Shown: positions 2,169 to 23,723 of the stretch, one piece after another
How positions within the stretch are numbered: position 1 is the stretch's first letter
How the letters are laid out: every line of letters starts with the position of its first letter
Source: a virus
Lineage: Duplodnaviria; Heunggongvirae; Uroviricota; Caudoviricetes
Reading direction: 5' to 3' (one strand)
Length of the DNA stretch: 23,723 bases
IMG/VR virus record: IMGVR_UViG_2606217111_000003
Made by a program: the position numbers and the translations under genes
The notes under the pieces: model-generated
Told to the model about the DNA's origin: nothing
Seen by the model: only the letters and a program-made list of their open reading frames with translations
The model's database searches: none

Positions 2169-2335
2169 TTGACCCAAATCGAAGTTACGAACAAGAAAGC
2201 GTCGAGCGGGCTTTAACGTGCGCTAATTGCGGTCAGAAGCTGCATGTGCTGGAAGTTCACGTGTGTGAGTACTGCTGTGCAGAGCTGATGAGCGATTCGA
2301 ATAGCTCGATGCACGAGGAAGAAGATGATGGCTAA
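2165..2335 (+). CDS. ninF: NinF (Cys-rich small protein)
   Basis: (V/M)[43 protein letters not shown]... matches lambda NinF; start taken as GTG at 2165 overlapping the ninE stop; in-frame ATG at 2123 is the alternative. Confidence 0.75.
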
Positions 2336-2939
2336 ACCAGCGCGAAGACGATGTAAAAACGATGAATGTCGGGAATGGTTTCACCCTGCATTCGCTAATC
2401 AGTGGTGGTGCTCTCCAGAGTGTGGAACCAAGATAGCACTCGAACGACGAAGTAAAGAACGCGAAAAAGCGGAAAAAGCAGCAGAGAAGAAACGACGACG
2501 AGAGGAGCAGAAACAGAAAGATAAACTTAAGATTAGAAAACTCGCCTTAAAGCCCCGCAGTTACTGGATTAAACAAGCCCAACAAGCCGTAAACGCCTTC
2601 ATCAGAGAAAGAGACCGCGACTTACCATGTATCTCTTGCGGAACGCTCACGTCTGCTCAGTGGGATGCCGGACATTACCGGACAACTGCTGCGGCACCTC
2701 AACTCCGATTTGATGAACGCAATATTCACAAGCAATGCGTGGTGTGCAACCAGCACAAAAGCGGAAATCTCGTTCCGTATCGCGTCGAACTGATTAGCCG
2801 CATCGGGCAGGAAGCAGTAGACGAAATCGAATCAAACCATAACCGCCATCGCTGGACTGTCGAAGAGTGCAGGGCCATCAAGGCGGAGTATCAGCAGAAA
2901 CTCAAAGACCTGCGAAACAGCAGAAGTGAGGCCGCATGA
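2325..2939 (+). CDS. ninG: NinG / Rap (Holliday-junction resolvase-like)
   Basis: 204 aa, [34 protein letters not shown]... matches lambda NinG. Confidence 0.9.
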
Positions 2940-2982
2940 CGTTCTCAGTAAAAACCATTCCAGATCACAAGGGAGAAGGCGC

Positions 2983-3471
2983 ATGGGCATAAGAGAACTA
3001 AACCTCACCAAAGAACAGCACGAGTGGCTGAATGGCTGGCTTGAACTGTGGGGCGCATGGGTTTATTCAGGTCGTCTGGAAAAGCGCATGAGCAGCGTAA
3101 TAGCTAAGTTCATGGAGAGCGTAGAGCCGGGAAGAGTTATGACAAGGCCAATGTGTAATGATGATGATGGAATGTTGATTTCTCAGGTCGTCGATTCCGT
3201 CATGTACATTGACAAGAAAGCCTTTGGCATCCTCCTCAGCTACTACGCCCACGGCTCTTCCAAGCACGCCATTGCATCTTACTATCATCGCGTCGCAAGA
3301 CCTCGCAAGATGTTATGCCGGGGCGGCGGGCGCATTCAAAAACCATCGCTCGCAACCTGTCGACGGGAAGTTGACGAAATCCTCAATGCCTCGTTGTTTA
3401 TGATTTACCCGGTTCTGGATAGTGCGTTTAAAAACCGGAAACGTGTAGAGAAAATTAAACATGTAGCATAG
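2983..3471 (+). CDS. Q: Late-gene antiterminator Q, non-lambda type (P22 gp23 / phage-21-or-82-like family)
   Basis: 162 aa from ATG 2983 with RBS gggagaagg; WLELWGAWVYSGR and Cys/His-rich core resemble the antitermination-Q family; sits between nin genes and the lysis cassette; not similar to lambda Q. Confidence 0.75.
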   Translation: MGIRELNLTKEQHEWLNGWLELWGAWVYSGRLEKRMSSVIAKFMESVEPGRVMTRPMCNDDDGMLISQVVDSVMYIDKKAFGILLSYYAHGSSKHAIASYYHRVARPRKMLCRGGGRIQKPSLATCRREVDEILNASLFMIYPVLDSAFKNRKRVEKIKHVA

Positions 3472-3477
3472 AACGTG

Positions 3478-3506
3478 TTGACATCATTGAGCAAATGAGC
3501 AACACT
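3478..3506 (+). promoter_or_regulatory. Candidate late promoter (PR'-like): ttgaca -35 with a weak -10 about 17 nt downstream
   Basis: Consensus ttgaca hexamer 7 nt after the Q stop; the -10 match is poor; position is right for the Q-modified late promoter. Confidence 0.3.
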
Positions 3507-3516
3507 ATTCGCATAA

Positions 3517-3559
3517 GCTGCCGTTAGTGACTCTTAAGTTGCAACGGTGGCTTTTTTTA
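3517..3559 (+). terminator. Candidate tR'-like intrinsic terminator (stem 3517-3525/3543-3551 with two G-U pairs, then ttttttta)
   Basis: Hairpin followed by a 7-T run just downstream of the candidate late promoter. Confidence 0.45.
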
Positions 3560-3562
3560 TTT

Positions 3563-3637
3563 GGGTCAGTCGTATAAAGGTCATTACGGAAGGCTGTTAA
3601 CCTTCTTATCGTGGTTCGAGTCCACGCTGTCCCGCCA
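3563..3637 (+). tRNA. tRNA-like gene, anticodon loop ctGTTaa (Asn-type), non-canonical (one U-U mismatch in acceptor stem, 3-bp D-stem); possibly a degenerate or phage-specific tRNA
   Basis: Hand-folded cloverleaf: acceptor gggtcag/ctgtccc, perfect anticodon stem gaagg/ccttc, T-arm cgtgg-ttcgagt-ccacg, 3' gCCA encoded. Confidence 0.5.
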
Positions 3638-3642
3638 AATAT

Positions 3643-3718
3643 GCTGGTTTAGCTCCAATGGTAGAGCGGTCGCCTTGTAAGCGAATGGGTAGCGGTTCAA
3701 GTCCGTTAACCAGCACCA
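3643..3718 (+). tRNA. tRNA gene, anticodon TGT (Thr-type)
   Basis: Hand-folded cloverleaf: perfect acceptor gctggtt/aaccagc, D-arm gctc-caatggta-gagc, anticodon loop ctTGTaa, T-arm agcgg-ttcaagt-ccgtt, discriminator A and CCA encoded. Confidence 0.65.
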
Positions 3719-3836
3719 TAACTGAGCCGTAGCCACTGGATGTCCTGAATTCATCAGTGATAGTTATGCTGCGGTCTTCTTTTTCTCCCTTCCCAATATA
3801 AGAACTACGCAATCCGTTACTGGCGGAGGCGTTGCT

Positions 3837-4052
3837 ATGAAATCAATGGACAAAATCTCAACTGGCATTGCCTACGGAACATCCGCTGGTAGTGCGGGAT
3901 ACTGGTTTTTGCAGTGGTTGGATCAGGTCAGTCCATCACAGTGGGCTGCGATTGGGGTGCTTGGAAGCCTTGTGTTGGGCTTTCTCACCTATCTGACAAA
4001 TCTGTACTTCAAAATCAGAGAAGACAGAAGAAAGGCTGCGAGAGGTGAATAA
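3837..4052 (+). CDS. S: Pinholin S (phage-21 S21 type) with dual start (Met1 antiholin, Met4 holin)
   Basis: 71 aa, [71 protein letters not shown]; two TM segments; RBS ggcggagg. Confidence 0.9.
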
Positions 4053-4549
4053 TGCCTCCATCATTACGAAAAGCCGTTGCTGCGGCTATTGGTGGCGGGG
4101 CTATTGCTATAGCATCTGTGTTAATCACTGGCCCAAGTGGTAACGATGGTCTGGAAGGCGTCAGCTACATACCATATAAAGATATCGTTGGTGTATGGAC
4201 TGTATGTTACGGGCATACCGGAAAAGACATTATGCTCGGTAAAACGTATACCGAAGCAGAATGCAAAGCCCTCCTGAATAAAGACCTTGCCACTGTCGCC
4301 AGACAAATTAACCCGTACATCAAAGTCGATATACCGGAAACAACGCGCGGCGCTCTTTACTCGTTCGTTTACAACGTTGGTGCTGGAAATTTCAGAACAT
4401 CGACGCTTCTTCGCAAAATAAACCAGGGCGATATCAAAGGCGCATGTGATCAGCTACGGCGCTGGACATACGCTGGCGGTAAGCAATGGAAAGGGCTGAT
4501 GACTCGCCGTGAGATTGAGCGTGAAGTCTGTTTGTGGGGGCAACAATGA
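4052..4549 (+). CDS. R: SAR endolysin (phage-21 R21-type lysozyme with N-terminal signal-anchor-release domain)
   Basis: N-terminal Gly/Ala-rich weakly hydrophobic segment [20 protein letters not shown] followed by a lysozyme-like domain; start overlaps the S stop. Confidence 0.9.
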
Positions 4550-4983
4550 GTAGAGTAACCGTGATTATCTCCGCTCTGGTTATCTGCATCATCGTCTGCC
4601 TGTCATGGGCTGTTAATCATTACCGTGATAACGCCATGACCTACAAAGAACAGCGCGATAAAGCCACATCCATCATCGCTGATATGCAGAAGCGTCAACG
4701 TGATGTAGCAGAACTCGACGCAAGATATACAAAGGAACTTGCTGATGCTAACGCGACTATCGAAAGTCTCCGTGCTGATGTTTCTGCTGGGCGTAAGCGC
4801 CTGCAAGTCGCCGCCACCTGTGCAAAGTCAACGACCGGAGCCAGCAGCATGGGCGATGGAGAAAGCCCAAGACTTACAGCAGATGCTGAACTCAATTATT
4901 ACCGTCTCCGAAGTGGAATCGACAGGATAACCGCGCAGGTTAACTACTTGCAGGAATACATCAGGACGCAATGCCTTCGATGA
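4546..4983 (+). CDS. Rz: Rz i-spanin
   Basis: [30 protein letters not shown]... N-terminal TM then coiled-coil, lambda Rz-like; ATGA overlap with R. Confidence 0.85.
4739..4930 (+). CDS. Rz1: Rz1 o-spanin (outer-membrane lipoprotein) embedded in the +1 frame of Rz
   Basis: Signal peptide plus lipobox LLGVSAC, Pro-rich mature part, fully nested in Rz. Confidence 0.8.
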
Positions 4984-5425
4984 TAGCGATAATTTTACTC
5001 ATCATCCTTCACATCTGGCTCTGTAGACAGGGTGGTGATCACTTCTGGAGTGAATCCAGATTAAACATCTCATTGCTGATGCTTGAAGTTGAGCATCTGG
5101 CGCGCGGTAAGGGGCTGCGTTGAGATAAGAGCCAGTTCATTACAAAGCCTATCTACGGGTGGGCTTGATAATGAAACCGGAATTTATTCTGGGCAACCAG
5201 TTACGGCAGTACAGCGAAACAACCCAAGCCAGTAAGTGGGGAAATAACACTGGCAGCCACTGAAAGATGAACCTCCAGCCTTATGGCAAAAAAGATTCTT
5301 TGTGGTGGCGGACTGATGGAAAGACATCGGTTATTGCAGAGACCATTCAATGAGTGGTCTCGACAATGGCTTATATCCTGCTAAGAGTGATTAACTGGGT
5401 GGCAAAAGTTCACCACCAACATCAA

Positions 5426-5857
5426 TTAGATTAAATTATTTCGATAAGCAGAATCGATTAGAGCGTTCATAAAGAGATACTCAACATCTTCGGTATAGTC
5501 GATGTCTATTGGAGCTGTTGAGTCAAGCGCCCCAAAATGCATGCAATTGTTCCAATCAAGAAAAATTTTATGAAACTCCTGTTTTTTTCCATCTCGCGAT
5601 GTGTAAAAAGTAATAACCCCAATTAATGAGCCTTCGTGAAGTGAAAGCTTACTTTCTGTAAAACACTTAAAGCGTAGCTGTGGAATTGAAACCTCAAGCT
5701 CTCCATCATTTAGCTCTATGGAAATTTGCTTATTAAGGTCTCGTTTGTTATTCCATGCGGTGTTAACACGTTCTAATAAATCATTCGTATTTTGCTGTAA
5801 TAACTCACCTTTCCTAGAAAGTAACTGTGACAATCCGATAAACGTTAATGAGCTCAT
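5426..5857 (-). CDS. Hypothetical protein (143 aa), AT-rich antisense gene between lysis cassette and terminase; function unknown
   Basis: Only sizeable ORF on the minus strand not nested in a + gene; clearly AT-richer than flanks; aaggtg Shine-Dalgarno before ATG 5857 (longer form from 5884 would overlap terS); same position and orientation as lambda bor but no sequence resemblance. Confidence 0.6.
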   Translation of the reverse strand: MSSLTFIGLSQLLSRKGELLQQNTNDLLERVNTAWNNKRDLNKQISIELNDGELEVSIPQLRFKCFTESKLSLHEGSLIGVITFYTSRDGKKQEFHKIFLDWNNCMHFGALDSTAPIDIDYTEDVEYLFMNALIDSAYRNNLI

Positions 5858-6431: not shown

Positions 6432-8054
6432 ATGCCGTTACCATTCCCCTTCGATTTTAAAAATCCTGATTACCAGATGGTTTTTGAATGGCGGATGGAA
6501 CGCTTACAGCGCATTCGCCAGAACCCTGAAATATTGCCAGCACTAAAACAGTTTTACCGAACCAATCCGGCTCAGTTCATCATCGACTGGGGCATGACAA
6601 CGGACCCGCGTAATATTGATTATGGCCTGCCGGTGACCATTCCGTTTTTACTCTTCCCTAAGCAGGAGGAGTGGATCCACTGGATTATGGAACGCTGGAG
6701 CAATCGGGAGAATGGTATTACCGAAAAATCCCGTGAAATGGGGCTCAGTTGGACCGCGATCGGACTGGCATGCTCGCTTTGTCTCTTCAACAAAGAAATG
6801 GTTATCGGTTTTGGCTCCCGTAAAGAGGAATACGTCGACAGCACTGGTGACCCGAAAGCATTGTTCTGGAAGGCGCGCAAGTTCGTGGAAACGCTACCTG
6901 TAGAGTTTCGCGGTTCGTGGAGTGAGAAGAAGCACGCGCCATATATGCGTGTTGAGTTTCCTGAAACTGGTGCCGTTATCAAAGGCGAGGCTGGCGATAA
7001 TATTGGTCGTGGTGACCGTACCACGCTTTATCTGGTTGATGAGGCTGCATTCCTTCAGCGTCCTCTGCTGATTGATGCGGCGTTGTCACAAACGACGCGT
7101 TGCCGTATCGACCTGAGTTCAGTTAACGGCATGGCTAACCCGTTCGCTCAGAAGCGTCATGGCGGGAAGATACCGGTATTCACATTCCACTGGCGGGATG
7201 ATCCTCGCAAGGATGAAGAGTGGTATCGCAGGGAATGCGAGAAAATCGATAATCCGGTGGTGGTGGCACAGGAACTTGATCTGAACTACAGCGCATCAGC
7301 GGAAGGCGTCCTGATTCCATCCGAATGGGTACAGGCTGCCGTTGATGCGCATATCAGACTGGGTATCCAGCCAACAGGCAAACGACTTGGCGCGATGGAT
7401 GTCGCTGATGAAGGCAGGGACAAAAATGCCTTTTCCACCCGTCATGGCTTCCTCCTGGAAAATGTGCGGGAATGGTCCGGTGTGGGCAGCGACATTTATC
7501 AGTCCGTCGAGAAGGTTTTCGGCTTTTGCGAACAGGACAACCTCGAAGAGTTTCGCTTTGACGAGGACGGGCTGGGCGCTGGCGTTCGCGGCGATGCACG
7601 CGCTATCAACGAACTGCGTAACGCTGCGCGTCGACCGTCAATACTTGCCACACCGTTTCGAGGTAGTGGCGCGGTATTTGATCCGGATGATGAAGCTGTT
7701 CGCGGGGACAACGGGCAAGCCGCACGTCTGAACAAGGACTTCTTCGCTAACGCCAAAGCCCAGAGCTGGTGGCGGTTACGTAAACTTTTTCAGAATACCT
7801 GGCGCGCCGTGGTTGAAGGTATGGCTTACAACCCGGACGAAATCATCTCAATCAGCAGTAGCATGGCACTCAAAGATAAACTCATCATCGAGCTTTCGCA
7901 GCCGACCTATTCCATTAATGGTGTGGGAAAAATAGTTATTGATAAACAGCCTGATGGAACCCGATCGCCAAACCTTGCCGACTCGGTGATGATCAACTAT
8001 GCCCCAATGAATTCAGCCCTGAACATCTGGGAGCTGCTAGGGAGACAGGCCTGA
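6432..8054 (+). CDS. Terminase large subunit
   Basis: 540 aa; Walker-B-like LYLVDEAAF; size and position between terS and portal. Confidence 0.85.
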
Positions 8055-9520
8055 TGGCACGAAACAAACAAGCCCTGCGGCGAACTGCGCAGGCCACAGC
8101 TGATGGTTATGAGAATTTTATTGCCCGCGTAGGGATGCAGACAACTAACCAGCACTCAGCATCCACCTACCGGGCTAATTTCACCAGTCGTAACCGCATG
8201 CTGGTGGAATGGTCCTATCGTTCGTCCTGGATCATCGGCGAAGCGGTCGATGCTATCCCGGATGATATGACCCGCAAAGGCATTCGCATCACTTCGGAAA
8301 TTGATGCAAAAGATCGCGGCATTCTCGAATCACAACTGGATGAGTTGCAAATCTGGGATGCGCTGAATGACGTGCTGAAATGGTCGCGCCTCTACGGCGG
8401 CGCGGTGGGTTTCATCATGATTGAGGGGCAGGCACCAATGACCCCGCTGCGACCCGAAACCATCGGTAAGGGCAAGTTTAAGGGGATTCTCCCGCTCGAC
8501 CGCTGGATGATTGACCCGGTACTGACCCGCCGCATTAAAGATATGGGGCCGGACCTGGGTAAACCTGAGTTTTACGATGTGGTGACCACAGCAACGGGAA
8601 TTCCTGCCTGGCGCATTCATCACAGTCGACTGATTCGCTTTGATGGCGTCACGCTGCCATTTCAGCAGAAGATGACCGAGAACGAATGGGGAATGTCGGT
8701 TGTAGAGCGTATCTGGGATCGTCTTACCGCGTTCGACAGCGCTACTGTCGGCGCGGCGCAGCTGGTCTACAAAGCGCATTTGCGTACCTACAGCGTGGAG
8801 AAGCTACGCGAGCTTATCGCACTTGGTGGTCCTGCGTATGAAGCGTTGCTGAAGAATATTGACCTGATTCGACAGTTCCAGAGCAATGAAGGCATGACTC
8901 TCATGGACTCGCGGGATAAGTTTGAAACCCATCAGTACAGCTTCAGTGGTCTGGATGACATCCTTTCACAGTTTGCAGAACAGATTAGTGGCGCTGTTGG
9001 TATCCCACTGGTGCGGTTGTTCGGACAGTCCCCGAAGGGATTTTCTACCGGCGATGCAGACCTTGCCAACTATTACGACCGGGTAAGCTCGTTGCAGGAG
9101 AGGCGTTTACGTCTTCCGGTGCGGCGGATACTGGACATCATGCATCGTTCGGAGCTTGGCAAGCCGCTGCCGGACGATTTCACGTTTGAGTTTAACCCGC
9201 TCTGGCAAATGTCTGATGTCGATCGCTCAACGGTGGCGTTAAACACTACCAACGCAATCAGTACAGCGCTGGGTGATGGTCTGATGACACTGAAAGCCGC
9301 TATGACTGATTTGCGAGAAAATTCTGACGTAACCGGCATCGGGGCATCCATTACCGACGAGGACATAGAGAATGCCGAAGACGAAGCGCCGCCCGGCATC
9401 GGCGAACCTGATGACGAACCGCAGGAACCGTCAGGCGGAAATCCGGTATCGAACCAGCCTACGCAGGATAGCGCGGGCGGTAGGGGACATCGTAAATGGT
9501 CACTACGATGGTTCAAATGA
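8054..9520 (+). CDS. Portal protein
   Basis: 488 aa directly after the terminase with ATGA coupling; acidic C-terminal tail. Confidence 0.8.
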   Translation: MARNKQALRRTAQATADGYENFIARVGMQTTNQHSASTYRANFTSRNRMLVEWSYRSSWIIGEAVDAIPDDMTRKGIRITSEIDAKDRGILESQLDELQIWDALNDVLKWSRLYGGAVGFIMIEGQAPMTPLRPETIGKGKFKGILPLDRWMIDPVLTRRIKDMGPDLGKPEFYDVVTTATGIPAWRIHHSRLIRFDGVTLPFQQKMTENEWGMSVVERIWDRLTAFDSATVGAAQLVYKAHLRTYSVEKLRELIALGGPAYEALLKNIDLIRQFQSNEGMTLMDSRDKFETHQYSFSGLDDILSQFAEQISGAVGIPLVRLFGQSPKGFSTGDADLANYYDRVSSLQERRLRLPVRRILDIMHRSELGKPLPDDFTFEFNPLWQMSDVDRSTVALNTTNAISTALGDGLMTLKAAMTDLRENSDVTGIGASITDEDIENAEDEAPPGIGEPDDEPQEPSGGNPVSNQPTQDSAGGRGHRKWSLRWFK

Positions 9521-16547: not shown

Positions 16548-17000
16548 ATGGAGTTCGAAATCAAAGGCGTGAAATATCGCGTGGCAAAACTCAGCGTTTT
16601 TGACCAACTGAAAGTGACCCGCAAACTTCTGCCGGTGCTGGCAGGAATGATGTCAGATTTCGGGAGCATTCGCTCCCGTTTGCCTGCTGATGGCAAAATC
16701 GACACCGTGAAATTCGAGCAGTTAAAACCGGTGTTTGAAACCATGCTCCCGCGTATCGCTGAGGAACTGTCTTCCCTGACCGAAGATGACACCAGTGCGA
16801 TTATTCATCCCTGTCTTGCGGTGGTATCGCGGCGTCATATGGACGGATGGGTTCCGGTATTTACCCAGGGCGAACTGATGTTTGATGATATTGACTTGCT
16901 GGTCATGCTGCAGCTGGTGGCGCGGGTGGTCGCCGATTCGCTGGGAAATTTTTTGCCTACACCCCTTACCAGCACGACGCAGAGCCTGCAACAGGGCTGA
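16548..17000 (+). CDS. Tail assembly chaperone (G-like, 0-frame product)
   Basis: 150 aa directly upstream of the tape measure gene; contains a slippery site near its 3' end with an open -1 frame extension. Confidence 0.7.
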   Translation: MEFEIKGVKYRVAKLSVFDQLKVTRKLLPVLAGMMSDFGSIRSRLPADGKIDTVKFEQLKPVFETMLPRIAEELSSLTEDDTSAIIHPCLAVVSRRHMDGWVPVFTQGELMFDDIDLLVMLQLVARVVADSLGNFLPTPLTSTTQSLQQG

Positions 17001-17188
17001 CGTTTAACAGCCTGCCGGACGGGCTGTCCTACCTTCTCAATCCGGTTGACGCCGGGTTAATTCCTTATACAGCACTTAAAGATGGCTCTGTCGATTTGTA
17101 CGATATTGCTCTTTTGAATGACCATCTGGCGGTAAAAGCGGATAACCAGCGGCGCATTGAGAAATGGAGAGAGGATAATGAACGCTGA
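16946..17188 (+). other. Programmed -1 ribosomal frameshift site (a_aat_ttt / t_ttt_ttg) and 81-codon -1 frame extension (GT-like chaperone fusion)
   Basis: Heptamer A AAT TTT is phased with the chaperone frame at 16946-16952; the -1 frame is open from there to TGA 17186-17188 and overlaps the tape measure start. Confidence 0.6.
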
Positions 17189-19166
17189 AACTATTAAAGA
17201 TTTCCTCGTCTCGCTTGGCTTCAGTGTGGATGATGCAGGAGCGAAAAAGTTCGGTTCTGTCCTCGCCGGTACAACTGCAAATGTCATCAAAATGGGGCTG
17301 GCCGTTGAAGGAGCCGCGCTGTCCGTGGTGGCCTTCACGGCTAAGATCGCCTCCGGTCTGGATAATCTTTACTGGGCGTCACAGCGCACTGGAGCGACAG
17401 TCCAGGGAATTCAGTCTATTGGCTATGCGGTTTCGCAGGTTGGCGGCAGCGTGGACGCTGCGCGATCTTCTCTGGAAAGCCTCTCCCGGTTTATTCGTAA
17501 TAATCCCGGTGCAGAGGGATTTCTGAATCGCCTGGGGGTACAGACACGGGATGCCAGCGGTAACATGCGTGACATGGCCGCTATTTTTACAGGTGTAGGC
17601 CAGAAGCTCAGCGGCATGCCGTATTACCGGGCTAACCAGTATGCGCAGATGCTGGGCATTGACGAAAATACCCTTATGGCGATGCGTCGGGGTGTGGGTG
17701 GTTTCTCCGGGCAGTACAGCGCAATGGCGAAAGCTATCGGCTTCAATGCTGACGAGGCGGCCAGAAGCTCCAACAAATTTATGACCTCCCTGCGTGAGTT
17801 TAGCGCGATGGCAGGCATGGCCCGTGACAAAATCGGCTCTAATCTTGCGGGTGGGCTTGCGGGTTCGCTGGACCCCCTGCGCCGCCATATCCTGGACAAC
17901 TTCCCTCGTATCGAGCTGACCCTGACGAAAGCCATAAAAGGCATTCTGGCGCTCGGGGATATTATCGGGCGGCTGTTCTTCAGACTGATTGAAGGAACAT
18001 CAGGTCTCATCACCTGGTGGCAATCGCTGGATAAGCAAACGCGGCAGTTGATCTCGCTGTTTGGCGCACTGACGATTGCGCTGCGCATTCTGAACAGTAC
18101 GTTCTGGATGTCGCCGATTGGCCTTATTACTGCGCTGGCGGCGGGGATTGCCCTTCTGTGGGAGGACTATCAGACCTGGAAGGAAGGCGGCGACAGCCTG
18201 ATTGACTGGGGCAAGTGGAAACCGGAGGTCGATGCCGCGTTGAAGATGGTTCGTGACCTTAAAACAACCGTTAACGACCTGGCGAAAGCGCTGGCGAAAC
18301 TGCTCAATATTGACCCCAAATCATGGTCCCTGAAGTGGGATTTCAGCAACTTCATCGACCAGATGGGCGAATTCAGCAAAATGCTGAACATGATCGCCGA
18401 CCTGCTCAACGCTATCAAAGATGGCCGCTGGGCTGATGCCGTCAGCATCAGCAAACAGATACTTAATCAGGGCAGCGAAAATCCGTCAGCGATGCCGATG
18501 GTTACAGACAGCGCTAACAGTACTGCCGACTGGATTAAAGAGCACTGGGGATTCGATCCTCGCAGCGTGGGCCGGACGGTACGCGGCTGGTTTGGTGATG
18601 ATGAGCCGGAACAATATGCACAGGCTACGAAACGAGGAGAACGGAATAACAATCCGGGAAACCTTAATTTTGCTGGTCAGGCAGGGGCTTCTCTTGAACG
18701 CCCGGGCGGGCGATTTGCCAGATTTGAAACTGCTTTTGATGGATTACGGGCTCTTGCTCGTCAGTTAATGCTGTACGCCGGACGGGGAATAAACAGTGTG
18801 GAGAAAATTATCTCTACCTGGGCACCTGCGTCTGATAATAACAACACAACTGCGTATATCAGGGCTGTATCGCAACGACTGGGAGTGGATCCCCGGGCTG
18901 CCCTGAATATGAGCGATCCGCAAACCATGTCAGCATTGATGAGCAGCATTATCCAGCATGAAAATGGAAGAAATATCTATTCCCGAGAGCTGATTAATAA
19001 GGCTGCCGTGGCAGGAATTAGTGGCAAAGTGACAGAGGTTAACCAGCAAAATACCTACCACATTTACGGTGGCGGAGATCCGCACGCTGTCGGTAATGAG
19101 GTTGCACGTCGGCAACAGTCTGCAAATGCTCAGGTCATGCGAAGTAATCAGGTGAGGGTGGGTTAG
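17178..19166 (+). CDS. Tail tape measure protein
   Basis: 662 aa from ATG 17178 (RBS ggagagagg; in-frame ATG 17157 is the alternative); Ala/Gly-rich helical N-terminus with internal hydrophobic segments; follows the chaperone pair. Confidence 0.85.
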   Translation: MNAETIKDFLVSLGFSVDDAGAKKFGSVLAGTTANVIKMGLAVEGAALSVVAFTAKIASGLDNLYWASQRTGATVQGIQSIGYAVSQVGGSVDAARSSLESLSRFIRNNPGAEGFLNRLGVQTRDASGNMRDMAAIFTGVGQKLSGMPYYRANQYAQMLGIDENTLMAMRRGVGGFSGQYSAMAKAIGFNADEAARSSNKFMTSLREFSAMAGMARDKIGSNLAGGLAGSLDPLRRHILDNFPRIELTLTKAIKGILALGDIIGRLFFRLIEGTSGLITWWQSLDKQTRQLISLFGALTIALRILNSTFWMSPIGLITALAAGIALLWEDYQTWKEGGDSLIDWGKWKPEVDAALKMVRDLKTTVNDLAKALAKLLNIDPKSWSLKWDFSNFIDQMGEFSKMLNMIADLLNAIKDGRWADAVSISKQILNQGSENPSAMPMVTDSANSTADWIKEHWGFDPRSVGRTVRGWFGDDEPEQYAQATKRGERNNNPGNLNFAGQAGASLERPGGRFARFETAFDGLRALARQLMLYAGRGINSVEKIISTWAPASDNNNTTAYIRAVSQRLGVDPRAALNMSDPQTMSALMSSIIQHENGRNIYSRELINKAAVAGISGKVTEVNQQNTYHIYGGGDPHAVGNEVARRQQSANAQVMRSNQVRVG

Positions 19167-19753
19167 TGGATATTCTCTCTACACTTTTTCATCAGCAGAG
19201 CAGAAAAATAGGAATGATTGTTCCCAGTGTTGTTATTTCAGAGAAGCATACAGATATGCTTGAAATAACAGAGCATCCGGTAGAGGTCGGGGCTGCTGTC
19301 GCTGATCATGCCTATAAAAAACCGTCAGAAGTGGTGATGGAGGTTGGTTTCGCCGGTGGCGGCGCATTGCTGGATTTTGCCAGTAACCTGACGGCTACCA
19401 GCCTGCTCGGCCTGAGTCCTCAGCAGACGTATCAGGAGCTACTGGATCTGCAGGAAAGCCGTATCCCCTTCGATGTGGTAACCGGTAAACGGCTGTACAG
19501 CAACATGTTGATCCGGGCGCTGGAAGTGACGACGGACAAGACAACCGAAAACGTCCTGTCCGCCGTCCTCACCCTGAGGGAGGTCCTTATCTCCCGGACA
19601 CAGCAGATCACCGTCGCTGATAAAACCAACATGAAGGAAGGGGCCAGCACGTCGGCGGTACAGAACAGCGGCAACAAAACCACAAAGCCTCCAGATACTT
19701 CACTGCTGAAAAGCATCACGGGTAACGTGGTGTCATTACTGGGAGGCGGATAA
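19166..19753 (+). CDS. Post-tape-measure tail protein (function unassigned)
   Basis: 195 aa, ATGA overlap with tape measure stop; structural-module GC content. Confidence 0.6.
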   Translation: MDILSTLFHQQSRKIGMIVPSVVISEKHTDMLEITEHPVEVGAAVADHAYKKPSEVVMEVGFAGGGALLDFASNLTATSLLGLSPQQTYQELLDLQESRIPFDVVTGKRLYSNMLIRALEVTTDKTTENVLSAVLTLREVLISRTQQITVADKTNMKEGASTSAVQNSGNKTTKPPDTSLLKSITGNVVSLLGGG

Positions 19754-20055
19754 TGACAATTCAGGAAATTCCGCTGACAGCGGACAACCAGCAGTTCAGC
19801 ATCGTCCTGGGTGGTGTCACCTGGCGGATTAGCATCATATGGCGCGATCCTTACTGGATTATGGACCTGCAGAACGACAGAGGGGAGCCGGTAATCTCCG
19901 GTATACCTCTCGTCACTGGCGCTGACCTGCTGGCGCAGTACGCCTGTATGGGACTTGGTTTTAAGCTGTTGGTGGTCTGCGATGACAACACACAGGATTA
20001 TCCCACGAAAACTGACCTGGGCGGGCGCAGTCATTTACTGGTATCAACGGAGTAA
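19753..20055 (+). CDS. Post-tape-measure tail protein (function unassigned)
   Basis: 100 aa, ATGA overlap with the upstream gene. Confidence 0.55.
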   Translation: MTIQEIPLTADNQQFSIVLGGVTWRISIIWRDPYWIMDLQNDRGEPVISGIPLVTGADLLAQYACMGLGFKLLVVCDDNTQDYPTKTDLGGRSHLLVSTE

Positions 20056-20057
20056 GC

Positions 20058-21125
20058 ATGACACAGAACTGGATGAGACATTTCGAGCTGCAGCTTGTGG
20101 ACGGGAACGGTCAGGGAATTGAGCTAAGTGATTTCAAAGTCACCTTTACGATCGACTGGTTCAACATCAGCAGCGCGTCCCGGGTAGGGACTATCAAAAT
20201 TTATAACCTCTCGGCAGATACTGTGAACCGAATTACCGGGCAGGAGTTTTCGAAAGTGCGTCTGATTGCGGGTTACGACGGTATCGCGCCGGAGGTGTCG
20301 GCAAGCGATGTCGGGACCGTGCGGGAGGTTGATGCGGCGGACGTGGGCCAGAGTGATGGCCGCAACTACGGACTGATTTTCAGCGGTGAAATTCGCTACT
20401 CGGTCACAGGAAAAGACAGCCCGGTTGATTCCTACGTCCTGATTCAGGCAGCCGATACAGATCTGGCTTTTGCCACCAGTATAACCTCACAGACGCTGGC
20501 TGCCGGTTACACGGTCGCTGATGTGAACCGTGCGCTGATGAAAGACTTCGAAGCCAAAGGTGCGACCGAAGGCCTGACGCCTGAAATGCCTGCTACTGTA
20601 TTCCCCCGGGGGCGGGTACTCTTTGGCATGACGCGGCATCTTATGGATAATGTAGCCGGGCAATGTGGCGCAACATGGCAATTCGTGGATGGTCAACGCC
20701 AGATGGTGGCGAATAATGAATATGTTCACGAAGCGATTGTGCTCAACAGCGCTACCGGGCTTATTGGCATGCCGCAGCAGACTATCGGTAACGGCGTAAA
20801 CGTCCGCGCGCTTATTAATCCGAACATCCGGGTTAACGGGCTCATTCAACTGGATCAGGCTTCAGTGTATCGTACCGCGTTGTCGAACAACGATATCGCG
20901 ATGGCCGGTGGGCAGATCACCGACCAGAACACGGACGGAAATATTACGCTAAGCGGCACCACATCGCAGCCTGCCAGCATCGCAACGGATGGCGTTTATA
21001 TTGTGCGTGGGATTATGTACACTGGCGACACAAGGGGGCAGGCGTGGTACATGGATATGATGTGTGAAGCACGTGGCGCGGCTGATCTACTTTCGTCCTC
21101 AGCGCAGCAAAGGATTTATTCATGA
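20058..21125 (+). CDS. Tail/baseplate-associated protein (hub-like candidate)
   Basis: 355 aa, 2-nt gap from the upstream gene; last high-GC structural gene before the AT-rich island. Confidence 0.55.
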   Translation: MTQNWMRHFELQLVDGNGQGIELSDFKVTFTIDWFNISSASRVGTIKIYNLSADTVNRITGQEFSKVRLIAGYDGIAPEVSASDVGTVREVDAADVGQSDGRNYGLIFSGEIRYSVTGKDSPVDSYVLIQAADTDLAFATSITSQTLAAGYTVADVNRALMKDFEAKGATEGLTPEMPATVFPRGRVLFGMTRHLMDNVAGQCGATWQFVDGQRQMVANNEYVHEAIVLNSATGLIGMPQQTIGNGVNVRALINPNIRVNGLIQLDQASVYRTALSNNDIAMAGGQITDQNTDGNITLSGTTSQPASIATDGVYIVRGIMYTGDTRGQAWYMDMMCEARGAADLLSSSAQQRIYS

Positions 21126-21469
21126 AGCGTATGAAGTTAGTTTTGACAATTTCGTTATTATTTTCTTGTTCAGCAGCTTTTGCTGATTTGCAATGCGGCG
21201 GATATCTACTTCATGCAGCTGATAACGGTTGGACAAAAATCAACGGTGAGCAGGTAACATCACAGAAGATTACGTTTCTTGGTAAGAAAGATGACTGGGA
21301 CAACGTTAAAACTAACATGGGCCTGATGCCTTCTCGCGATGGCAACAATTACGGCTTTGAGTTTGTGAAGCGTAACGGAAAAGCTTTCCTGAACGTCCAG
21401 CTTCTGCAGAACAGCATGGATGCGCCTAAAATCATCGGATCATTCCCTTGTAAAAAGGCGTTACGCTAA
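21122..21469 (+). CDS. Small secreted protein (115 aa) with N-terminal signal peptide, two Cys in the mature part; function unknown
   Basis: MKRMKLVLTISLLFSCSAAFA then polar mature domain; AT-rich; ATGA overlap with the last tail gene. Confidence 0.6.
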   Translation: MKRMKLVLTISLLFSCSAAFADLQCGGYLLHAADNGWTKINGEQVTSQKITFLGKKDDWDNVKTNMGLMPSRDGNNYGFEFVKRNGKAFLNVQLLQNSMDAPKIIGSFPCKKALR

Positions 21470-21506
21470 AGTTTGATGTCAATCTTCCGAGATGAGCGCT
21501 TTAAGG

Positions 21507-21535
21507 TTGACGAGATATTGTTCAAAGTTCACAAT
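21507..21535 (+). promoter_or_regulatory. Candidate sigma-70 promoter (ttgacg, 17-nt spacer, cacaat) upstream of the 257-aa gene
   Basis: Hexamers read directly from sequence, about 30 nt upstream of the ORF start; modest -10 match. Confidence 0.35.
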
Positions 21536-21564
21536 CACAATCCCTTTAGTAAGAGAAATAATCC

Positions 21565-22338
21565 ATGGCGGCAGGCATCCCATTAGAAAAAGCGCAAAAA
21601 TATATTGAACAATTCAATGCGCTTCTATTGGATAGGGAAAGTTTAGATCCCTTCACTGAAAAGAAAATTCGAGAGGAACTTTCTGTCTCTCCAACGCCTG
21701 CTACCAACATTGCACTATCTTATCTGGATGCAATAACCGGAAAGATTGAAAGCGCGTTACGTTATCTCAGGATAAGCCTAGAAGTAAACGATGTAACGTT
21801 GGCAATGCACTATCATCACATTTTAATTAATACATTTAGCTATAATGAACTCAAGGATGTCTATGTCCCGCTGGCAAAGAAGTATCGGACAAAACTCTTT
21901 AGTCACAACGCATACAGTTGGGCGTACCGTTGCGGCGAGCGTGAACAGTTAAAATTTTATATGGAAGAGCACATTAAGCTTCTTTCTGAATCAGAAGGCA
22001 GGAGTAATGCTATGAAGCACAAAGAAGAACTCCTTGCAGAAATGGATAATTTCTATAGCGCCACACAGTGCTCGAAGGAACAGTTCCAGACCTTAGCATC
22101 CATAATCTGGGGCTTGCTAAGTGAATACAAGGCTACGACAGGTTTCGTTCAGCTTAGTGGAAGCGGTTGCTATGTTGTTGATATTAAAAATCTTGAGCCT
22201 AAAACTATTGCCAAAATGAACTTCGACTTGGCTGATAGAGTCTGCGCTGAATCTAAACTGGATGATTGTTCCCTGTTAGCTAGATTTACCTCTCCGCGTC
22301 AGTTGCATACGGGGGTGAGCTACCATGTCGGTAACTAG
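21565..22338 (+). CDS. Hypothetical protein (257 aa), AT-rich island gene; function unknown
   Basis: Long uninterrupted ORF in AT-rich DNA; 14-nt overlap with the downstream 93-aa ORF suggests an operon; no motif I can assign. Confidence 0.6.
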   Translation: MAAGIPLEKAQKYIEQFNALLLDRESLDPFTEKKIREELSVSPTPATNIALSYLDAITGKIESALRYLRISLEVNDVTLAMHYHHILINTFSYNELKDVYVPLAKKYRTKLFSHNAYSWAYRCGEREQLKFYMEEHIKLLSESEGRSNAMKHKEELLAEMDNFYSATQCSKEQFQTLASIIWGLLSEYKATTGFVQLSGSGCYVVDIKNLEPKTIAKMNFDLADRVCAESKLDDCSLLARFTSPRQLHTGVSYHVGN

Positions 22339-22606
22339 CAATCAGATTCTCGATACCGCTCGATTATGTCTGTCTGAAAATATTGAGAGTGGATTTCGAA
22401 GCGCTATCTCAAGGGCGTATTACAGTATGTTACATGAGTCTATTAGCTCACTTACTGCCATACCGCATTTTACCCATGAGCATCACAAAAATACTGTGGG
22501 TTATATGTCAACGCCCTCAGAGTGCAAATCAGAGCCATACCCGACAAATACACTGAAATCCCTAGCTTTCGTACTTCGCCAGTGGCGGGATGCTAGAAAT
22601 GAATAG
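22325..22606 (+). CDS. Hypothetical protein, 3'-truncated by IS2 (93 aa as encoded; stop codon TAG is the first three bases of the IS2 left inverted repeat); contains an R-x6-H segment (SRAYYSMLH)
   Basis: ORF overlaps the 257-aa gene and runs without a stop into the IS2 end at 22604. Confidence 0.5.
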   Translation: MSVTSNQILDTARLCLSENIESGFRSAISRAYYSMLHESISSLTAIPHFTHEHHKNTVGYMSTPSECKSEPYPTNTLKSLAFVLRQWRDARNE

Positions 22607-22817
22607 ACTGGCCCCCTGAATCTCCAGACAACCAATATCACTTAAATAAGTGATAGTCTTAATACTAGTTTTTAGACTAGTCATTGGAGAACAGATGATT
22701 GATGTCTTAGTAGACTGGCCCCCTGAATCTCCAGACAACCAATATCACTTAAATAAGTGATAGTCTTAATACTAGTTTTTAGACTAGTCATTGGAGAACA
22801 GATGATTGATGTCTTAG
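22604..22817 (+). repeat. Perfect tandem direct repeat, 2 x 107 bp, each unit the IS2 left inverted repeat plus leader and first 16 nt of insC
   Basis: Units 22604-22710 and 22711-22817 are identical base for base; canonical IS2 carries this segment once. Confidence 0.9.
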
Positions 22818-23167
22818 GGCCGGAGAAACGCAGACGGCGTACCACACAGGAAAAGATCGCAATTGTTCAGCAGAGCTTTGAACCGGGGATGACGGTCTCC
22901 CTCGTTGCCCGGCAACATGGTGTAGCAGCCAGCCAGTTATTTCTCTGGCGTAAGCAATACCAGGAAGGAAGTCTTACTGCTGTCGCCGCCGGAGAACAGG
23001 TTGTTCCTGCCTCTGAACTTGCTGCCGCCATGAAGCAGATTAAAGAGCTCCAGCGCCTGCTCGGCAAGAAAACGATGGAAAATGAACTCCTCAAAGAAGC
23101 CGTTGAATATGGACGGGCAAAAAAGTGGATAGCGCACGCGCCCTTATTGCCCGGGGATGGGGAGTAA
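22802..23167 (+). CDS. insC: IS2 transposase OrfA (InsC, HTH DNA-binding protein)
   Basis: 121 aa, [56 protein letters not shown]... matches IS2 InsC. Confidence 0.95.
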
Positions 23168-23723
23168 GCTTAGTCAGCCGTTGTCTCCGGGTGTCGCGTG
23201 CGCAGTTGCACGTCATTCTCAGACGAACCGATGACTGGATGGATGGCCGCCGCAGTCGTCACACTGATGATACGGATGTGCTTCTCCGTATACACCATGT
23301 TATCGGAGAGCTGCCCACGTATGGTTATCGTCGGGTATGGGCGCTGCTTCGCAGACAGGCAGAACTTGATGGTATGCCTGCGATCAATGCCAAACGTGTT
23401 TACCGGATCATGCGCCAGAATGCGCTGTTGCTTGAGCGAAAACCTGCTGTACCGCCATCGAAACGGGCACATACAGGCAGAGTGGCTGTGAAAGAAAGTA
23501 ATCAGCGATGGTGCTCTGACGGGTTCGAGTTCCGCTGTGATAACGGAGAAAAACTGCGAGTCACGTTCGCGCTGGACTGCTGTGACCGTGAGGCACTGCA
23601 CTGGGCGGTCACTACGGGCGGCTTCAACAGTGAAACAGTACAGGACGTCATGCTGGGAGCGGTGGAACGCCGCTTCGGCAACGAGCTTCCGGCGTCTCCA
23701 GTAGAGTGGCTGACGGATAATGG
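23125..23723 (+). CDS. insD: IS2 transposase OrfB (InsD, DDE catalytic domain), partial; expressed as an OrfAB fusion by -1 frameshift at aaaaaag (23119-23125)
   Basis: From GTG 23125 in the -1 frame: [43 protein letters not shown]...; runs to the window edge. Confidence 0.9.

Follow-up and report, generated by a model that had tools for sequence, protein, structure and literature searches.

Organization of the locus

The stretch of DNA analysed here, 23,723 nucleotides from a tailed phage (Caudoviricetes) and referred to below as the window, carries several genes in the same orientation before an insertion sequence at its right end. The baseplate hub gene (20058-21125, + strand) encodes 355 amino acids, has a weak Pfam match to E217_GP41, and makes up the region's conserved left flank. 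It is followed on the + strand by a gene for a 115-amino-acid protein (21122-21469), by an intact gene for a 257-amino-acid protein, here called gene A (21565-22338), and by gene B (22325-22606), which overlaps gene A by 14 nt and is truncated to 93 codons. The left end of IS2 with its orfA and orfB (22604-23723, + strand; HTH_Tnp_1 match) runs off the end of the window, and its first three bases form the TAG stop codon of B. The window ORF list gives the three + strand ORFs between the hub gene and IS2 the same coordinates as a preliminary description of this DNA.

That description also reported a shift to AT-rich sequence after the tail gene, which is borne out by measurement. Sliding GC is 0.40-0.45 over 21000-22800, compared with 0.53-0.57 over 17200-20800. 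The 115-residue protein gene, gene A, and truncated gene B have GC contents of 0.425, 0.420, and 0.433, against 0.522±0.023 in 23 + strand ORFs from elsewhere in the window (z = -4.2, -4.4, and -3.9, respectively). GC3 is lower too, at 0.40-0.47 against 0.557±0.052 for the same 23 ORFs. An Rfam search of 20500-23723 matched nothing, and Pfam, NCBIfam, and PADLOC searches with the three window proteins gave nothing useful. The PHROG families matched by window proteins are all of no known function.

The 115-residue protein and the baseplate hub

The TGA stop codon of the hub gene overlaps the ATG of the 115-residue protein gene (ATGA at 21122-21125), and the second gene, to judge from this junction, is translationally coupled to and in tandem with the first. 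In RefSeq relatives the hub gene is preceded by Dit-like and plug genes, in the order Dit-like, plug, hub. The N-terminus of the 115-residue protein, MKRMKLVLTISLLFSCSAAFA followed by DL, resembles a Sec signal peptide with a cleavage site between AFA and D, in keeping with the earlier view of the protein as secreted, and the product is predicted to be a small exported (periplasmic) protein. It has two conserved cysteines and matches phrog_3443, a family of unknown function, at 1e-53. We considered a lipoprotein and rejected it, as the LFSC motif is not conserved in other alleles. The NCBIfam name "STY1065/STY2022", attached in RefSeq to one 115-residue allele, was not reproduced by an NCBIfam search.

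Homologues of this gene were found in 20 phage records, with the hub gene adjoining in every one. Of the approximately 253 E. coli genomes in which the gene and the hub occur together, only 27 have the A-B pair, and an identical A-B pair was found combined with different 115-residue alleles. The 115-residue protein gene is a conserved gene of SEN34/Brunovirus-like temperate myoviruses and is not part of a replaceable cassette. The single three-gene island proposed earlier is better described as two units, since this gene is conserved with the hub whether or not the A-B pair is present.

A replaceable cassette between the hub and spike genes

The borders of the second unit were defined by comparing a 100% identical intact locus (L001, in which position 6457 corresponds to window position 21456) with loci carrying other cargo. 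Homology ends at L001 6457 and restarts at L001 7737-7749. The cassette begins about 13 nt ahead of the stop codon of the 115-residue protein gene and, when intact, is about 1.28 kb long, ending at a terminator hairpin immediately ahead of the spike gene; the right breakpoint falls inside this hairpin, AAACCCGC-TTCG-GCGGGTTT, which is followed by a T run. The surviving left part in the window spans 21457-22603 on the + strand. An intact cassette is present in E. coli 357900 (NZ_CP038859, roughly 2776.4-2778.5 kb), corresponding to L001 6458-7760. The gene order in intact loci is hub, 115-residue protein, A, B, terminator, spike, sheath initiator, and baseplate J, with wedge and fibre genes also downstream. 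The statement that no baseplate or tail-fibre genes follow is therefore incorrect for intact loci, which have them immediately downstream; they are absent from the window because IS2 inserted.

Between flanks that are approximately 89-99% identical, the same slot holds at least five alternative cargos, among them a divergent A'/B' pair, a DUF2335 gene, and SEN34_21 or Mulock_021. Only A and B form the replaceable, mobile cassette, and they move as a unit.

Phage morons are accessory transcription units of the Hendrix type in late operons, examples being bor and lom of lambda and cor of phi80 and N15. The A-B pair has a GC content with z≈-4 relative to the surrounding operon and shows presence/absence polymorphism among close relatives. 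Its foreign composition, which had been suggested previously, is evident in both GC and GC3, each below that of the 23 other window ORFs. Like morons, and like the prophage defence hotspots of P2 and P4 (PMC9122126), the pair combines this composition with presence or absence in a fixed slot flanked by conserved structural genes; a hairpin that may act as a terminator stands at the right edge, and a promoter candidate precedes gene A. The literature covered does not list the hub-spike slot of SEN34/Brunovirus-like myoviruses as a hotspot, a defensive role for its cargo is putative, and none of that cargo matched PADLOC.

The candidate promoter, TTGACG-17-CACAAT (21507-21535, + strand), lies upstream of gene A, matches 9 of 12 consensus positions, and was located on the identical locus L001 at 6508-6536. 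A scan of L001 found two such sites, compared with 3.6±2.0 expected from shuffled sequence, so position is the sole argument for a promoter here; the match to the consensus on which gene A had been credited with its own promoter is at chance level. The strong hairpin and T run directly after B in intact loci are partly common to loci with other cargo, and the hairpin at the right edge may therefore belong to the flank.

Linkage of genes A and B

Intact loci without IS2 were found, and the two genes are conserved together in them. B follows A in 37 of 37 IMG/VR viral loci when the search starts from A, and A precedes B in 64 of the 66 evaluable viral loci when it starts from B. At the junction the genes are at most 1 nt apart and overlap by as much as 20 nt, an overlap being usual. 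The genes are co-directional, adjacent or overlapping, and inherited together, as in two-gene toxin-antitoxin (TA) systems, and this co-occurrence favors the initial suggestion of an overlapping accessory pair of the TA or abortive-infection type, predicted to be co-transcribed. In the most distant B-like loci (L131 and L132) an upstream ORF of similar size is present, in which likeness to the A family is undetectable. A search with alignment A1 among species-representative genomes returned only four loci.

Both ORFs stay open in more than 100 loci, with A at 253-261 residues down to 18% identity and B at 123-131 residues down to 28%. Among diverse pairs the identities are 18-55% for A and 28-69% for B, A diverging faster. 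PGAP annotates nothing over the 131-residue B ORF in four E. coli records in RefSeq, and the window copies are without a Pfam match, as would be expected of chance reading frames in an AT-rich spacer. That reading has a negligible probability and, on comparison of the sequences, is already refuted by the conservation data: lengths and motifs are conserved in more than 100 loci, A is modeled with a pLDDT of 91.5 (AF2), and B has significant HEPN matches.

The gene B product is a HEPN protein

Intact B is a 131-residue ORF in L001 and L002, and the window ORF is its first 93 codons. Neither the truncated window form nor the intact form has a Pfam or NCBIfam match on its own. A profile built from 23 B homologues matched the PDB entries 9xbd (5.8e-7), 9xbc (2.4e-6), and 2hsb (AF0298, UPF0332; 5e-4), and P0221, a homologue with 47% identity to B, matched Pfam PF05168 with 28.8 bits (cut-off 22). 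AF0298 and 9xbd resemble B in length (approximately 125-131 residues), and their N-terminal SRAYY..FH helix segment and C-terminal R-N-x-x-D-Y-D segment align with B residue for residue. B aligns over its full length with solved HEPN chains, a family whose four-helix up-and-down bundle pairs into dimers that create the active cleft. By these profile matches and motifs, intact B is a member of the HEPN-T/UPF0332 (PF05168) family.

The signatures SR[AG]YYxxxH and RxxADY are present in nine of nine diverse pairs, and homologues with as little as 28% identity retain the polar residues E21, R25, S29, R30, Y32, Y33, H37, H54, Y60, E70, R91, D95, and Y96. The canonical HEPN motif Rx4-6H was not found in these nine pairs; the corresponding segment is R91-N-E-A-D95-Y96, with no histidine. 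In the HEPN-T clade D replaces the canonical H and a conserved histidine occurs elsewhere (PMC3710099, Table 1), a pattern that B fits with its conserved H37 and H54. Membership in the clade therefore stands, and RNase activity is not assured. HEPN domains without Rx4-6H have been proposed to be non-catalytic binders (PMC3710099), and B, given the absence of the motif, could be one of them.

The gene A product

In the model of protein A, predicted with high confidence, a TPR-like helical array (approximately residues 7-139) is followed by a long helix (146-167) and then by a small α/β domain (171-242); the tail (247-257) is disordered yet conserved. The consensus of the conserved C-terminal end is ARFxSPRxLHTGVSY. 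The array consists of tandem helix-turn-helix repeats, as in the TPR repeats of Pfam clan CL0020. Profile searches and structure prediction have thus yielded HEPN matches for B and a TPR-like fold for A, and the earlier statement that neither protein was assignable fails for B and for the N-terminal two-thirds of A; what is left of it concerns the remainder of A. A Foldseek search of BFVD picked up two phage proteins of equal size, both uncharacterised, and gave no functional lead.

No residue of A is invariant across 41 diverse members, and no polar residue is conserved across the wider family. With its TPR fold, its lack of invariant residues, and its faster divergence than B, A looks non-catalytic, and its predicted role is that of a non-enzymatic partner, either inhibitor or sensor, of the HEPN protein.

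The HEPN-T/UPF0332 clade is usually paired with minimal nucleotidyltransferases (MNTs), whereas the partner of B is a 257-residue TPR-like protein. In the type VII HEPN-MNT systems (HepT/MntA; HI0073/HI0074; PDB 8xeh) an upstream partner neutralises a small HEPN toxin, and A-B is likewise a two-gene system with A upstream. The fold of the small α/β domain of A is weakly similar to that of MNT antitoxins, and A-B might be a derived type VII system in which this domain acts as a minimal nucleotidyltransferase that AMPylates the invariant Tyr96 of B, next to the R..AD motif, with the TPR array as an add-on regulator. This is improbable. The nucleotidyltransferase motif G[GS]x9-13DxD is absent from A, which has instead a TPR array of 140 residues, so neutralisation by AMPylation is unlikely; HepT belongs to the DUF86 type and has a canonical Rx4H, whereas the motif of B is non-canonical.

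Restriction to tail-gene modules

Every one of the more than 100 A-B loci examined sits within a tail-gene module, and the B-family HEPN proteins occur only in tail modules of Enterobacterales and Aeromonas prophages. Besides the hub-spike slot, the pair occurs between the tail chaperone and tape measure genes of a siphovirus-type Klebsiella prophage, where the 115-residue protein gene is missing, and in two further tail-module contexts. Placement in tail modules only could point to a tail-linked role rather than defence. A and B might instead work for the phage itself, as a TPR-HEPN complex without toxicity, whether in late-gene regulation, as a tail or baseplate chaperone, or in counter-defence, with the HEPN domain as a non-catalytic binder of RNA or nucleotides; TPR proteins are often chaperones, and the missing Rx4-6H of B would also fit. 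Several observations make such a complex quite unlikely. In prophages with hub and spike genes 92-99% identical the pair is missing or its slot is taken by unrelated cargo, so the pair is dispensable for tail assembly, and the same pair accompanies myovirus and siphovirus tails that have no tail proteins in common. The approximately 13 invariant charged or polar residues of B are typical of an active site, and the foreign composition of the pair also argues against a complex of this kind.

The IS2 insertion

IS2 begins at 22604, after codon 93 of B and within the R-x2-A-D-Y motif, and its insertion removes A94, D95, Y96, and the C-terminal helix. As these three residues are invariant and the last helix is lost with them, the module would be dead and A orphaned. 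The copy of A-B in the window is very probably inactive, as the preliminary description had proposed on the ground that IS2 truncates the last gene.

The first 107 bp of IS2 form a tandem duplication (22604-22710 and 22711-22817). A contig (L029) that is 100% identical across the IS2 junction stops after 112 nt of IS2; its final bases continue straight into IS2 at the point where the window begins the second 107-bp copy. None of the complete E. coli genomes searched has this IS2 junction. An 80-nt query spanning the tandem junction was uninformative, since all its matches were composites of two pieces from ordinary IS2 copies.

Gene A of the window is 100% wild type while B is truncated, which is the expected pattern if B is the harmful partner and is a hint in that direction. 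A plain addiction TA pair, acting by post-segregational killing, would account equally well for the loss of B to IS2 while A stays intact; B would be the toxin and A a labile protein antitoxin, and the pair would stabilise the prophage or its tail region with no anti-phage role. The obligate overlapping arrangement, the HEPN toxin family, and the fast-evolving partner are also as expected of such a pair. We nevertheless consider it unlikely. A TPR protein of 257 residues is large for an antitoxin, and A is without the DNA-binding domain that is typical of type II antitoxins and would serve autoregulation. The slot, furthermore, swaps diverse cargo among near-identical prophages, the usual pattern of superinfection or defence morons.

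Comparison with known defence systems

No match was found in PADLOC-DB v2.0.0 for the 115-residue protein, A, truncated or intact B, or the divergent pair, and PADLOC searches over 41 A-family members gave only three isolated matches, with E≥0.001. The accessions of the A-B pair were not found in the DefensePredictor supplements, and in the literature searched we found no mention of them (the RefSeq accessions) or of 9xbd. Two DefensePredictor candidates were rejected: DS-28, which combines a HEPN protein with a 252-residue protein, shows no relationship by BLASTP, and the HEP3 protein shows no similarity.

For a temperate phage that carries a functional HEPN moron there is a precedent in Tha/Ith of S. 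aureus prophages, a proven defence in which a HEPN effector is checked by a cognate phage protein (PMC11087260). Tha/Ith defends lysogens and responds to the tail proteins of an incoming phage (PMC11087260). Its likeness to A-B is one of description, and there are differences: Tha has 301 residues, a canonical RNSIMH motif, and a place in the lysogeny module, and Ith is small and encoded antisense to Tha, with no TPR partner.

HEPN domains linked to TPR or SLR repeat proteins are known from the LA2681 family and from AbiU2 with a Sel1-repeat gene (PMC3710099, Table 1). These resemble A-B, again by description, in that the HEPN gene shares an operon with a repeat-protein gene or is fused to it. 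Unlike B they keep the canonical Rx4-6H and belong to other HEPN clades, and none was experimentally characterised according to PMC3710099. The parallel suggests that repeat proteins may be recurrent regulators or sensors of HEPN effectors.

Proposed function

We favor the interpretation that A-B is a moron-type, TA-like module for abortive infection or superinfection exclusion, carried in the hub-spike slot of the baseplate operon and expressed from the prophage, and we give this a probability of roughly 0.55. B would be the effector, a HEPN ribonuclease or RNA-binding toxin that is probably dimeric. Translation of B would be coupled to that of A through the gene overlap, and A would bind B and keep it in check, its TPR array providing a protein-recognition surface. 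Infection by another phage, or loss of A, would then unleash B and arrest the cell.

More tentatively, the pair may be a new abortive-infection system in the full sense, in which A, as a TPR-like sensor, recognises a protein of the superinfecting phage, conceivably one from its tail or baseplate given that the cassette is always found within tail modules, and releases B, with a non-canonical active site made up of R-x2-A-D-Y, His37, and His54, and in which the hub-spike slot is a defence hotspot not recognised before; this stronger proposal is possible but rather doubtful.

HEPN effectors recur in TA, abortive-infection, and CRISPR-associated systems, and the MNT-associated HEPN-T/UPF0332 proteins without the catalytic histidine are poorly understood. 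A-B is a compact and strictly linked module of about 1.2 kb that has a TPR-like protein in place of the usual MNT partner. Its carriers are temperate phages of E. coli, Klebsiella, Yersinia, Pantoea, and related genera. Should it be defensive, it would represent a new sensor-effector pairing, give a handle on the working of non-canonical HEPN domains, and mark a new moron or hotspot slot to mine for more cargo. The window copy, disrupted by IS2, is unfit as a reference sequence. On the side of annotation, the HEPN gene has been left unannotated by RefSeq in the E. coli genomes examined.

Genomic setting and extent of the cassette

The region contains three ORFs on the + strand, at 21122-21469 (115 aa), 21565-22338 (257 aa; gene A) and 22325-22606 (93 aa; gene B), the last two overlapping by 14 nt. 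Sliding-window GC falls from 0.53-0.57 at 17.2-20.8 kb to 0.40-0.45 at 21.0-22.8 kb, and the ORFs have GC contents of 0.425, 0.420 and 0.433, respectively, compared with a mean of 0.522±0.023 for the 23 other + strand ORFs of the window (z ~ -4). Their GC3 is likewise low. ORF coordinates, sliding GC and per-gene GC thus confirm the AT-rich three-ORF stretch that the preliminary description had estimated by eye.

In a megablast search with window 21000-22620 against 5,426 complete E. coli genomes, 27 genomes matched the query in full as far as base 22603, and ~226 more matched only its first ~457 nt, comprising the hub gene end and the 115-aa gene. Of the intact homologous loci without IS2 that the preliminary description had proposed seeking, two served as references: L001 (100% identity) and L002 (93.7%). 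Their gene order is Dit-like protein, plug, hub (355 aa), 115-aa gene, 257-aa gene, an unannotated 131-aa ORF, membrane-puncturing spike, sheath initiator, baseplate J, wedge, fibre and fibre-assembly genes, and a Pin-type invertase. Because of this order, we assign the region to the baseplate operon of a SEN34/Brunovirus-like temperate myovirus. The earlier statement that no baseplate or tail-fibre genes follow does not hold for the intact loci, where spike, sheath initiator, baseplate J, wedge and fibre genes all lie downstream; the window lacks them because of the IS2 insertion. In L002 (E. coli RIVM_C029670), the tape-measure/lytic transglycosylase gene (2182-4167) is annotated as two pseudogene fragments; despite an intact TPR-HEPN pair, this prophage is probably defective.

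Pairwise BLASTN of L001 with two E. coli prophages carrying other cargo located the cassette edges. On the left, homology ends at L001 6457 (window 21456), 13 nt short of the stop codon that closes the 115-aa gene; on the right it returns at L001 7737-7749, within a strong hairpin, AAACCCGC-TTCG-GCGGGTTT, that is followed by a T run just upstream of the spike gene. The points at which homology stops and resumes indicate a replaceable cassette of ~1.28 kb, made up of the 257-aa and 131-aa genes. The "three-gene island" of the preliminary description therefore stands in part: genes A and B form an accessory cassette, and the 115-aa gene belongs with the hub gene, outside the cassette edges.

At least five alternative cargos occupy the slot between the 115-aa and spike genes, including two very divergent TPR-HEPN pairs. 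L009 carries a very divergent version of the same A/B pair (4612-5762) and L010 a DUF2335 membrane protein (4799-5371), while phages SEN34 (L019, 3864-4280) and Mulock (L020, 3836-4282) carry the unrelated single genes SEN34_21 (138 aa) and Mulock_021 (148 aa). None of the alternative cargos had a PADLOC match. The slot may be a cargo hotspot in SEN34/Brunovirus-like prophages.

The ATG of the 115-aa gene overlaps the hub TGA (ATGA), and its homologues adjoin the hub gene in 20 phage records; identical 257/131 pairs are found with differing alleles of it. The protein is conserved across phages of E. coli, Klebsiella, Salmonella, Yersinia and Citrobacter, and has a Sec-type signal peptide, cleaved at AFA|D (AMA|A in a different allele), together with a pair of conserved cysteines. 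Its sole PHROG match is phrog_3443, of unknown function. On this sequence evidence we treat it as a conserved, predicted exported phage protein separate from the cassette. Its gene sits mid-operon among the baseplate genes, translationally coupled to the hub gene; by analogy, the protein could be a superinfection-exclusion-type factor.

Gene B, a HEPN-family protein

Intact gene B encodes 131 aa in L001 and L002. A single-sequence search of PDB chains matched it end to end with the HEPN domain-containing protein entries 9xbd and 9xbc (E 0.002-0.007). A profile of 23 homologues lowered E to 5.8e-7 and also matched AF0298/2hsb (UPF0332) at 5e-4; the HEPN census (PMC3710099, Table 1) lists 2hsb as one reference structure for the HEPN-T (PF05168) clade. 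P0221, a relative with 47% identity, scores above the Pfam HEPN gathering threshold, and several sources label homologues "HEPN domain-containing" or "UPF0332 family". The matches to 9xbd, 2hsb and P0221 thus place in HEPN-T/UPF0332 a protein that had earlier been left without a known family.

The 23-sequence alignment shows no variation at residues E21, R25, S29, R30, Y32, Y33, H37, H54, Y60, E70, R91, A94, D95 and Y96, and SR[AG]YYxxxH and RxxADY are kept in all nine diverse pairs compared, down to 28% identity. The canonical Rx4-6H motif is absent from gene B; the profile matches and a documented motif variant place it in the HEPN-T/UPF0332 clade.

In none of the four E. coli records inspected (L001 7326-7721; L002 7311-7706; L026 and L027, about 2821-3216) does RefSeq (PGAP) annotate the 131-aa ORF, and its table has an empty gap of ~440 nt between the 257-aa and spike genes. 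The annotation of Klebsiella phage ST405-OXA48phi1.3 (L018) splits this ORF into two small CDS, 7819-7950 and 7947-8162.

Gene A, a TPR-like partner

A cluster of 136 sequences matches the gene A protein at 100% identity. Close relatives form only ~40 clusters at the 90% identity level, from Enterobacterales and Aeromonas, and an exhaustive profile search gave 120 representatives (50% identity), almost all between 245 and 270 aa long. Pfam TPR models matched 5-6 of 41 diverse family members. The structure prediction suggested in the preliminary description yielded a confident AlphaFold2 model (pLDDT 91.5, pTM 0.85) in which eight short helices span residues 7-139 and a long one residues 146-167; an α/β domain follows (helix 171-187; strands 192-197 and 202-207; helix 212-228; strand 238-242), and the tail (247-257) is disordered.

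Because of the TPR matches, the absence of a nucleotidyltransferase motif and the lack of any invariant residue across the wide family, we conclude that gene A probably encodes a non-enzymatic binding protein. The α/β domain may descend from an MNT antitoxin that has degenerated, although this is only suggestive. The missing motif also separates the pair from HEPN-MNT modules, of which a nucleotidyltransferase motif is the defining feature, and the rival reading as an AMPylating type VII-like system is very improbable.

Linkage and mobility of the pair

The conserved pairing that the preliminary description suggested checking was found from both sides. All 37 IMG/VR loci with a gene A relative have a gene B relative starting within ~20 nt of the gene A end, and a gene A-family ORF ends at the gene B start in 64 of 66 evaluable loci. 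The junction varies from a 1-nt gap to a 20-nt overlap. Gene A diverges faster, with 18-55% identity to the E. coli pair against 28-69% for gene B. The two exceptions, L131 (1333-2660) and L132 (2180-3400), hold the most distant gene B relatives (28-29% identity), preceded by overlapping ORFs of 270-310 codons that have no detectable similarity to the gene A family (hhalign E 0.22). The partner there may be a replacement, or else a gene A relative that has diverged past recognition.

SEN34-like myoviruses of E. coli, Rahnella, Yersinia and Pantoea carry the pair in their hub-spike slot. In siphovirus-type Klebsiella prophages, ST405-OXA48phi1.3 among them, it separates the tail chaperone gene from the tape-measure gene and is not accompanied by the 115-aa gene. 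In Dickeya it comes after the spike genes and adjoins antirepressor, Arc and Fic genes, and in a metagenomic phage its neighbours are Arc and antirepressor genes. Given these contexts, the pair is an autonomous cassette of two genes that travels among unrelated phages and always inserts in tail-gene modules.

In ST405-OXA48phi1.3, the other strand carries a gene for a TIR-domain protein (L018 14348-14768) a few kb downstream, beyond the tape-measure and distal tail genes; it is possibly another defence gene of the same phage. In the Dickeya prophage L025 (5462-9726), Bro-N/antirepressor, Arc/HicB-like and Fic genes come after the pair, giving an accessory cluster with further toxin-antitoxin-like components.

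Proposed function

We favour, at a probability of roughly 0.55, a defence module of effector and inhibitor/sensor. Gene B would be the effector, an RNase or RNA-binding toxin, probably dimeric as is typical for HEPN domains; gene A would sequester it, its TPR surface sensing a trigger. Release of gene B would then arrest the infected cell, giving abortive infection or superinfection exclusion. The observations behind this proposal are the obligately linked, translationally coupled pair, the conserved HEPN-T polar constellation, the fast-evolving TPR-like partner without catalytic signature, the foreign composition, the presence/absence polymorphism at a fixed slot and the IS2 knock-out of gene B. 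Tha/Ith offers a precedent for a prophage HEPN effector with a cognate inhibitor (PMC11087260), and the HEPN census (PMC3710099) also records HEPN genes that share operons with genes for TPR or Sel1 proteins. Tight coupling could equally be that of a pure addiction module, which we consider unlikely beside the defence proposal.

Against defence stand the missing canonical catalytic His, the absence of a PADLOC v2 match for the pair, and the promoter earlier credited to gene A, a candidate that lacks statistical support. A non-toxic complex with a phage-internal role would accommodate the missing His; with the HEPN-T constellation retained, we think it quite unlikely. PHROG matches of the pair are only to families of unknown function, the HEPN two-gene system DefensePredictor DS-28 is unrelated, and no literature naming these proteins was found. 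We see the pair as a phage moron in which a probable HEPN effector, of a known kind, has a TPR-like protein as its new partner. The pair is a clean, testable candidate with tight genomic evidence, its significance limited by the commonness of HEPN-based modules, the small family and the dead window copy.

The IS2 insertion

IS2 starts at 22604 and, through its terminal TAG, provides the 93-aa ORF with a stop codon. The cut falls after E93, so that gene B loses A94, D95, Y96 and the C-terminal helix; the window copy is therefore almost certainly non-functional, as had been supposed. The window thus holds a natural IS2 knock-out in which gene B is disrupted and gene A intact. The IS2 junction was found in none of the complete E. 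coli genomes of the collection. IMG/VR contig L029 is 100% identical to window 16565-22710, junction included, and stops after 112 nt of IS2. The window itself has a perfect tandem repeat (22604-22710 and 22711-22817) of the initial 107 bp of IS2, from the left inverted repeat up to the orfA start. Because the final bases of L029 read straight on into IS2 where the window begins its second copy, the repeat suggests two overlapping contig ends joined without merging, not biology.
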